From: Escherichia coli
Lineage (GTDB): Bacteria; Pseudomonadota; Gammaproteobacteria; Enterobacterales; Enterobacteriaceae
NCBI RefSeq assembly: GCF_965641715.1
Contig: NZ_OZ282453.1
Length of the DNA stretch: 64,000 bases
Strand: one strand, 5' to 3'
The first letter of the stretch is position 1. Every line of letters starts with the position of its first letter. This document shows, piece by piece, positions 541 to 655 of this stretch. The position numbers were made by a program, and so were the translations under genes. Below the pieces are notes generated by a model that was given only the letters and a program-made list of their open reading frames with translations, searched no databases and was not told where the DNA came from.

Positions 541-655
541 TTATCCGCCTTAAGGTATGAGGGGGGTTGTAGGCATGATAAGACGCGCCAGCGTCGCATC
601 AGGCGTTGAGCACCATTGCCGGATGCGGCGTAAACGCCTTATCCGGCCTACAAAA
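541..655. repeat. REP/BIME cluster (two inverted REP palindromes)
   Basis: gtaggcatgataagacgcgccagcgtcgcatcaggc followed by gccggatgcggcgtaaacgccttatccggcctac, which are canonical E. coli REP sequences in opposite orientation. Confidence 0.8.

Follow-up and report, generated by a model that had tools for sequence, protein, structure and literature searches.

A REP/BIME chimera between the convergent yaeF and nlpE genes of Escherichia coli, with a probable role in mRNA 3'-end protection

We examined a stretch of 64,000 nucleotides (hereafter, the window), of which bases 1-1500 match Escherichia coli chromosomes, the identity being 99.8% for strain XJ34 and 98.3% for lineages of K-12. RefSeq annotation of the matching genomes places yaeF, nlpE and arfB beneath this match. 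The 3' part of yaeF occupies 60..527 on the plus strand and ends in a TGA stop at 525-527 (ORF list and RefSeq annotation), and nlpE, identified by its NlpE and NlpE_C Pfam domains as well as by RefSeq annotation, lies on the minus strand at 727..1437, with its stop codon at 727-729. The two genes are convergent and are separated by 199 nt, 166 of which are taken up by a mosaic of repeats. K-12 carries the same allele as the window, and window position p corresponds to K-12 position 216706 - p. Since the K-12 RefSeq record contains no annotated REP features, either between yaeF and nlpE or at REP325, we used instead the published BIME table in the supplement of PMC6379681 (Sutormin et al., table DS3), in which K-12 216028-216138 (window 568-678) is catalogued as a BIME of the class 'BIMEs1'. 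This reference interval is too small for the amount of repeat-derived DNA present.

Two canonical REPs lie in opposite orientation downstream of the convergent genes, as proposed in the initial annotation, and together span 83 bp. The first, a Y-type REP of 36 nt, is on the minus strand at 569-604 (plus-strand GTAGGCATGATAAGACGCGCCAGCGTCGCATCAGGC, minus-strand GCCTGATGCGACGCTGGCGCGTCTTATCATGCCTAC), with its GTAG tetranucleotide at 569-572 on the plus strand. The second, a Z-type REP of 34 nt, is on the plus strand at 618-651 (GCCGGATGCGGCGTAAACGCCTTATCCGGCCTAC) and contains a GTAAAC loop and a CTAC at 648-651 (GTAG at 651-648 on the minus strand). The GTAG-distal ends of the two REPs point at each other across a linker of 13 nt. 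Each full-length REP pattern matched once in the 64-kb window with up to 3 mismatches allowed, and not at all in 100 dinucleotide-preserving shuffles. Compared with the REP query sequences printed in PMC11208160 (Durrant et al. 2024), 617-651 is identical at 35 of 35 positions and 569-604 at 35 of 36. In the Y REP, ATCATGCCTAC replaces ATCAGGCCTAC; this ATCATGCC variant is shared by the rayT-flanking Y REPs of K-12, and 569-604 is identical to the Y REP found there.

Both sequences have the features by which the REP family is defined in PMC12306157 and PMC3333891: they are extragenic, multicopy, imperfect palindromes within the range of 14-40 nt that follow the family consensus and carry GTAG together with a stem mismatch. 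The transposase RayT requires the GTAG tetranucleotide and a two-base mismatch in the stem (Ton-Hoang et al., PMC3333891), and we found GTAG at the foot of the palindrome and a GC/TT stem mismatch in the Y and Z REPs alike. Folded as single-stranded DNA, each REP forms an imperfect hairpin (-6.9 to -12.2 kcal/mol) whose stem is interrupted by a 2x2 internal mismatch. As RNA, Y and Z together form a single long hairpin, with energies of -47.4 kcal/mol on the plus strand (z -6.4) and -42.9 kcal/mol on the minus strand (z -5.0). The initial annotation had made its call depend on further copies of the palindromes elsewhere in the genome, and these are abundant: at least 80% of an 87-nt unit is covered by a copy in 5425 of the 5426 complete E. 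coli genomes, and the median genome has 37 or more such places, counts being capped at 40.

The full mosaic extends over 532-697, and consists, in order, of a truncated Z2, a linker, Y, a short linker, Z, the linker L and a truncated Y. The bounds of 541-655 first given for the cluster enclose the core pair correctly and have to be abandoned at both ends, as 541 falls inside a truncated REP and 655 inside a conserved linker. The mosaic begins 5 nt past the yaeF stop with the 3' half of a Z-type REP on the plus strand (532-551, GTAAATGCCTTATCCGCCTT). Aligned to the intact Z REP, this remnant gives 18 matches in 20 columns (one mismatch, one gap), a score equalled in none of 2000 shuffles, and it forms a direct repeat with 630-650, the left Z2 being cut within its loop. 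The GTAG/CTAC ends of the truncated Z and of Y are separated by a G-rich linker (552-568), which can be aligned to the linker between REP325 units, CGGAGGGTGCGGGAATTT. The 13-nt linker between Y and Z (605-617, GTTGAGCACCATT) has GCACCATT in common with a REP325 linker and falls inside a match to the Rfam family naRNA4. Taken together, 532-651 aligns over 124 nt, at 86% identity, with the 100-bp unit that is repeated in REP325 of K-12, both kinds of linker included.

The right-hand part of the mosaic has a different affinity. The BIME-1 linker L (652-688, AAAAAACGTGCAAATTCAAAATGTTGAAATATATCCT) can be aligned to the segment that separates the two REPs in the Z-L-Y allele of other strains at this locus, as well as to the Z-L-Y elements of dacB-cgtA and gloC-aspC, differs from other copies at several positions, and occurs at a median of 3 places per genome. 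Beyond it, alignments with B-allele strains and with two other Escherichia species identify a minus-strand remnant of another Y REP (689-697), which reads TCTGGCCTG where GTAGGCCTG is expected; about 22 nt of the palindrome have been deleted and the GTAG is mutated.

The BIME classes and the Y/Z nomenclature are summarised in PMC3333891 (Stern 1984; Gilson and Bachellier). The general arrangement of a BIME is present, with Y on the minus strand (569-604), a 13-nt linker, Z on the plus strand (618-651) and remnants on either side. A BIME-2 unit, of Y, Z2 and a short linker, is recognisable from the alignment to REP325 (86% over 124 nt) and from a naRNA4 score of 92.8 bits; we found no tandem array of such units, there being one complete Y-Z2 unit and half of a Z2 only. 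The Z2 label is used here in the sense of a match to REP325 units with their GTAAAC loop, which Qian et al. (PMC4550694) termed Z2, and the Z-L-Y alleles of this locus show both GTAAAC and GTGAAC loops. Nor is this a complete BIME-1, as Z and L are present and the Y beyond L is a stump of 9 nt; the intact form is that of the sister allele. Judged by its sequence, 532-697 combines BIME-2 with BIME-1 parts in one chimera, which corresponds to an atypical BIME in the scheme of PMC3333891 through its mixture of Y and Z REPs with S-type and L-type linkers, the multiple copies typical of that class being absent.

Comparison with known systems places the element among familiar relatives. Its REPs show no substantial difference from E. 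coli Y and Z REPs in general: sequence, GTAG and 2-nt mismatch are alike, and so are the extragenic location at the 3' ends of genes and the presence of many copies. The BIME-2 arrays of REP325 (yjdM-yjdN) and of the REPtron likewise alternate Y and Z2 and have homologous short and G-rich linkers, although the REP325 array comprises 6 units, against about 1.2 here. With the BIME-1 (RIB/RIP) elements of the form Z-L-Y, the copy shares the order of Z and L and largely the same sequence, and the sister allele also lies between convergent genes; it departs from them in that the far-side Y is cut to 9 nt and lacks GTAG, and in having an extra Y and half a Z2 on the opposite side. REPINs, which by the account of Bertels and Rainey are reportedly REP doublets mobilised by RAYTs, resemble it in being inverted doublets with a short spacer that form one long hairpin, and the genome closest to the window has a RAYT gene. 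Unlike in REPINs, one arm here is a Y and the other a Z REP, and rayT is missing from a third of E. coli genomes. The element is an ordinary, already catalogued REP/BIME copy with nothing new about it.

Searching 5426 complete E. coli genomes with junction-specific queries, we identified three alleles of the spacer, which account for 5404 of these genomes. The window-type allele is found in 2044 genomes (38%), an allele with the left flank of Z-L-Y (plain BIME-1) in 2838 (52%) and a REP-free allele in 522 (10%). The Z-L-Y allele was counted with a REP-free flank query, in place of a junction query containing a whole REP that proved unusable because joined REP pieces inflated the coverage. In the REP-free allele, the genes are separated by a 29-nt spacer, AAAGCCGGAGAATGCTCCGGCTTT, which forms a hairpin of -27/-23 kcal/mol that includes both stop codons. 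The arms of this hairpin in two REP-free strains, LP-26-E1-261 (locus L005, 826-854) and E69 (locus L009, ~1213-1241), are GCCGGA/TCCGGC, the same as the outer stem of the Z REP. The existence of REP-free genomes, at 10% of the total, indicates that the element is dispensable.

Z-L-Y occupies the same position in E. whittamii and in Escherichia sp. MOD1-EC7003, indicating that it is the older allele and that the window-type and REP-free alleles are derived. These outgroups were retrieved with a back-translated pattern of the NlpE C-terminus, from one genome per species and at three loci in all, none of them in E. albertii, E. fergusonii or Salmonella. In the representative genome of Escherichia sp. 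MOD1-EC7003 (locus L011, ~1225-1290), the last ~45 nt of yaeF precede Z-L-Y, and the remainder of the gene has apparently been deleted.

The simplest route to the window-type allele would be recombination with another BIME through the shared Z REP, with or without RayT, by which the BIME-2 segment would have been added; RayT may have taken part in forming this allele. Our searches did not find the donor of the segment, and its closest paralogues (91-93%, near yafL-rayT and yafJ-lpcA) have other linkers. In XJ34, the closest genome, rayT is present about 45 kb from the locus, outside the window. Across the 5426 genomes, rayT was found in just 3575 (66%), while Y-S-Z2 units were found in 5425. 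Current mobility thus cannot be general, and REP/BIME copies persist without the transposase in many lineages.

We additionally identified insertions of IS621, an IS110-family bridge-RNA recombinase element, that interrupt the Y REP of Z-L-Y alleles, with about 488 of the 5426 genomes matching a junction query. The insertion amounts to 1279 bp, including one CT core, and in the three strains inspected it sits exactly at ATCAGGC-CT-AC, which is the natural IS621 target (Durrant et al., PMC11208160). These strains are ARS-C301 (locus L006, 1196-2475), GE3 (locus L007, 1891-3169) and ESBL 15 (locus L008), and the equivalent position in the window is ~689-692. One of the three is also without the Z REP and part of L, the loss having occurred between two CAAAATG repeats. 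In all three inspected strains, yaeF is annotated as a frameshifted pseudogene.

The two short ORFs called across the repeats, of 68 and 71 aa (557..763 and 606..821), had been dismissed as repeat-derived artefacts, and our results agree with this. Neither has a Pfam match, no CDS is annotated at either in any RefSeq record inspected, and the DNA beneath them is variable: about 62% of genomes lack it or have other sequence in its place. That they encode genuine small proteins has in its favour their presence in the mechanical ORF list, and is exceedingly improbable given the missing Pfam matches and annotation, the repeat DNA they traverse, which 62% of genomes lack or carry in another form, and the course of ORF 606..821, which runs antisense to nlpE over 95 nt. 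We rejected a coding role for both on the lack of Pfam matches, and both calls should be suppressed in annotation.

A noncoding RNA is suggested by a full-length match to the Rfam family RF02564 (naRNA4) at 572-648 on the minus strand, which scores 92.8 bits against a gathering score of 59.5 (47.3 on the plus strand). The RF02564 model was itself constructed from REP325 units. The locus might accordingly hold a naRNA4-like gene, in which a double hairpin of Z2, linker and Y from the nlpE 3' UTR would bind HU and bridge DNA cruciforms. The score lies on the nlpE-sense strand and near that of the weakest REP325 unit (95 bits), two-hairpin RNA together with HU condenses DNA, and most annotated REPs are transcribed (PMC4550694). 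However, RF02564 also scores generic Y-Z2 units, such as those beside rayT (REPtron), at yafJ-lpcA and at phnE-phnD (69-81 bits), and it gave no match on BIME-1 alleles; the match therefore means a BIME-2 unit, and is no evidence of a special RNA gene. The naRNA4 function itself, in HU binding and nucleoid condensation, has been demonstrated for REP325 products only (Qian et al., PMC4550694). In the minimum-free-energy fold here, Y and Z2 pair with each other and give a single long hairpin instead of two separate ones, the unit is single where REP325 has six, and it is missing at this locus in 62% of genomes, all of which makes such a gene improbable.

At the DNA level, the initial annotation had noted that BIMEs can bind IHF and gyrase. 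For IHF, the candidate binding part would be expected to be the L linker at 652-688, almost wholly outside 541-655. This linker is conserved and frequently contains an IHF site (PMC3333891), and in the present copy it has 12 of 13 matches to the IHF consensus at 665-677 on the plus strand and again at 668-680 on the minus strand. Given the properties of the family, binding of IHF at the L linker of this copy is plausible. The main role of the element could then be that of an IHF-binding BIME-1 of the RIB/RIP type, which would bend the DNA between both transcription units. Consistent with this are the retention of L here and its conservation across loci, the 12/13 matches to WATCAANNNNTTR on both strands, and the class of BIME-1 under which the interval is filed in the published table (PMC6379681). 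Against it, one of the flanking REPs is down to 9 nt, L deviates from other copies at several positions, and consensus matches at this stringency come at chance frequency, with 50 observed in the window versus 47.9 expected. Our literature search on IHF at yaeF/nlpE returned nothing relevant. We consider IHF binding as the main role possible, if rather unlikely.

Gyrase binding is a property of the family, and published K-12 data record no cleavage at this copy. BIME-2 elements are preferred targets of gyrase cleavage in vivo, with Y REPs above Z2 (Sutormin et al., PMC6379681), and between convergent genes a strong gyrase site might serve to absorb positive supercoils. In the same published data, however, K-12 216028-216138 has zero cleavage sites in each of four conditions (ciprofloxacin, rifampicin + ciprofloxacin, microcin B17 and oxolinic acid), and the locus contains one Y-Z2 unit only. 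We therefore disfavour a strong gyrase site, and rate it as distinctly improbable.

We then considered the ends of the transcripts, for which the role of mRNA terminator that the initial annotation had mentioned fails in its intrinsic form and holds only indirectly, through Rho. A bidirectional intrinsic terminator for yaeF and nlpE might be read from the stable GC-rich hairpins that lie shortly 3' of both stop codons. No U-run follows any of these hairpins on either strand, a terminator scan returned 0 sites in 528-726 on either strand, and the sole T-run, TTTTTT (the complement of 652-657), precedes rather than follows the Z hairpin on the minus strand. With a Rho termination region located farther downstream as well, this reading is very improbable, and we rejected it on the negative scan of the spacer. 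The sole match of the scan, at no more than chance level, was a terminator-like hairpin with a weak T-rich tail at 494-510 on the plus strand, inside the 3' coding end of yaeF.

The Rho-dependent region is listed in the supplement of PMC7815308 (Adams et al.) at K-12 216516 on the plus strand, which corresponds to window ~190 on the nlpE-sense strand; it lies antisense within yaeF, ~340 nt past the BIME, and has a Rho score of 3.2. Its place past the BIME is indirect support that the REPs may be cotranscribed with the genes beside them. A second region in the yaeF ORF, on the sense strand (K-12 216647, minus; window ~59; score 3.9), is unrelated to the BIME (PMC7815308). The curated Term-seq table of the same study contains no 3' end within the yaeF-nlpE spacer, which may reflect low expression or the discarding of repeat reads, and we found no entry for this locus in the supplements of PMC4550694, PMC12306157 and PMC6061677. 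In the general model, Rho terminates transcription and the RNA is then trimmed as far as a REP or another stem-loop (Dar and Sorek, PMC6061677).

What the element is, how it is built, its copy number, its structure on each strand, its polymorphism and the IS621 insertions in the sister allele are matters of observation, and its function, we infer, lies mainly at the RNA level, as a REP/BIME chimera that would protect mRNA 3' ends after termination by Rho; we put the probability of the reading as a whole at roughly 0.85. The element belongs to a family of non-autonomous palindromic repeats that the tyrosine transposase RayT (TnpA-REP) recognises by GTAG and an imperfect hairpin on single-stranded DNA, and that RayT and recombination between copies spread and reshuffle. 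At this locus, a BIME-2 segment (truncated Z2, linker, Y, short linker, Z2) is joined, at a Z REP common to both, with what is left of an older BIME-1. Transcripts of yaeF and of nlpE would run into the element and fold there into very stable hairpins lacking a U-tract, and transcription would end farther on through Rho. The 3'-to-5' exonucleases PNPase and RNase II would then trim the transcripts back to the REP hairpins, which would both set and protect the 3' end of the mRNA. The hairpin of the REP-free allele (-27/-23 kcal/mol), at the same position, suggests that a 3' hairpin is what is required. Roles of the family at the DNA level may or may not apply to this copy: L might bind IHF, the palindromes might bind gyrase or HU, and the element could be a landing site for IS621.

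There is a small chance that the three 3'-end architectures (chimera, plain BIME-1 and REP-free hairpin), each present in at least 10% of genomes, are functionally non-equivalent. If so, BIME alleles would alter readthrough or mRNA stability of nlpE, or would give rise, from its 3' UTR, to a naRNA-like fragment that binds HU, and repeat polymorphism would tune envelope-stress signalling between lineages, NlpE being the lipoprotein that activates the Cpx response. Turnover of REPs and BIMEs is a main source of intergenic polymorphism, and the locus is a compact natural example of such known turnover, of IS621 landing, and of a REP cluster in the place of a hairpin. It may be used as a test bed for REP function, and presents no challenge to current understanding.

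Finally, we noted other features elsewhere in the window. A single REP-like palindrome (GCCGGATGCGACGCTTAATGCGTCATATCCGGCCTTC, 3038-3074, plus strand) lies directly downstream of rof, with an RNA fold of -24.3 kcal/mol (z -7.0) and a degenerate tail that reads CTTC where CTAC is expected. Two Rfam families scored above their gathering scores, both on the minus strand: t44 RNA at 26596-26682 (83.5 bits), and the HtrA 5' UTR thermometer at 34839-34884 (77 bits).
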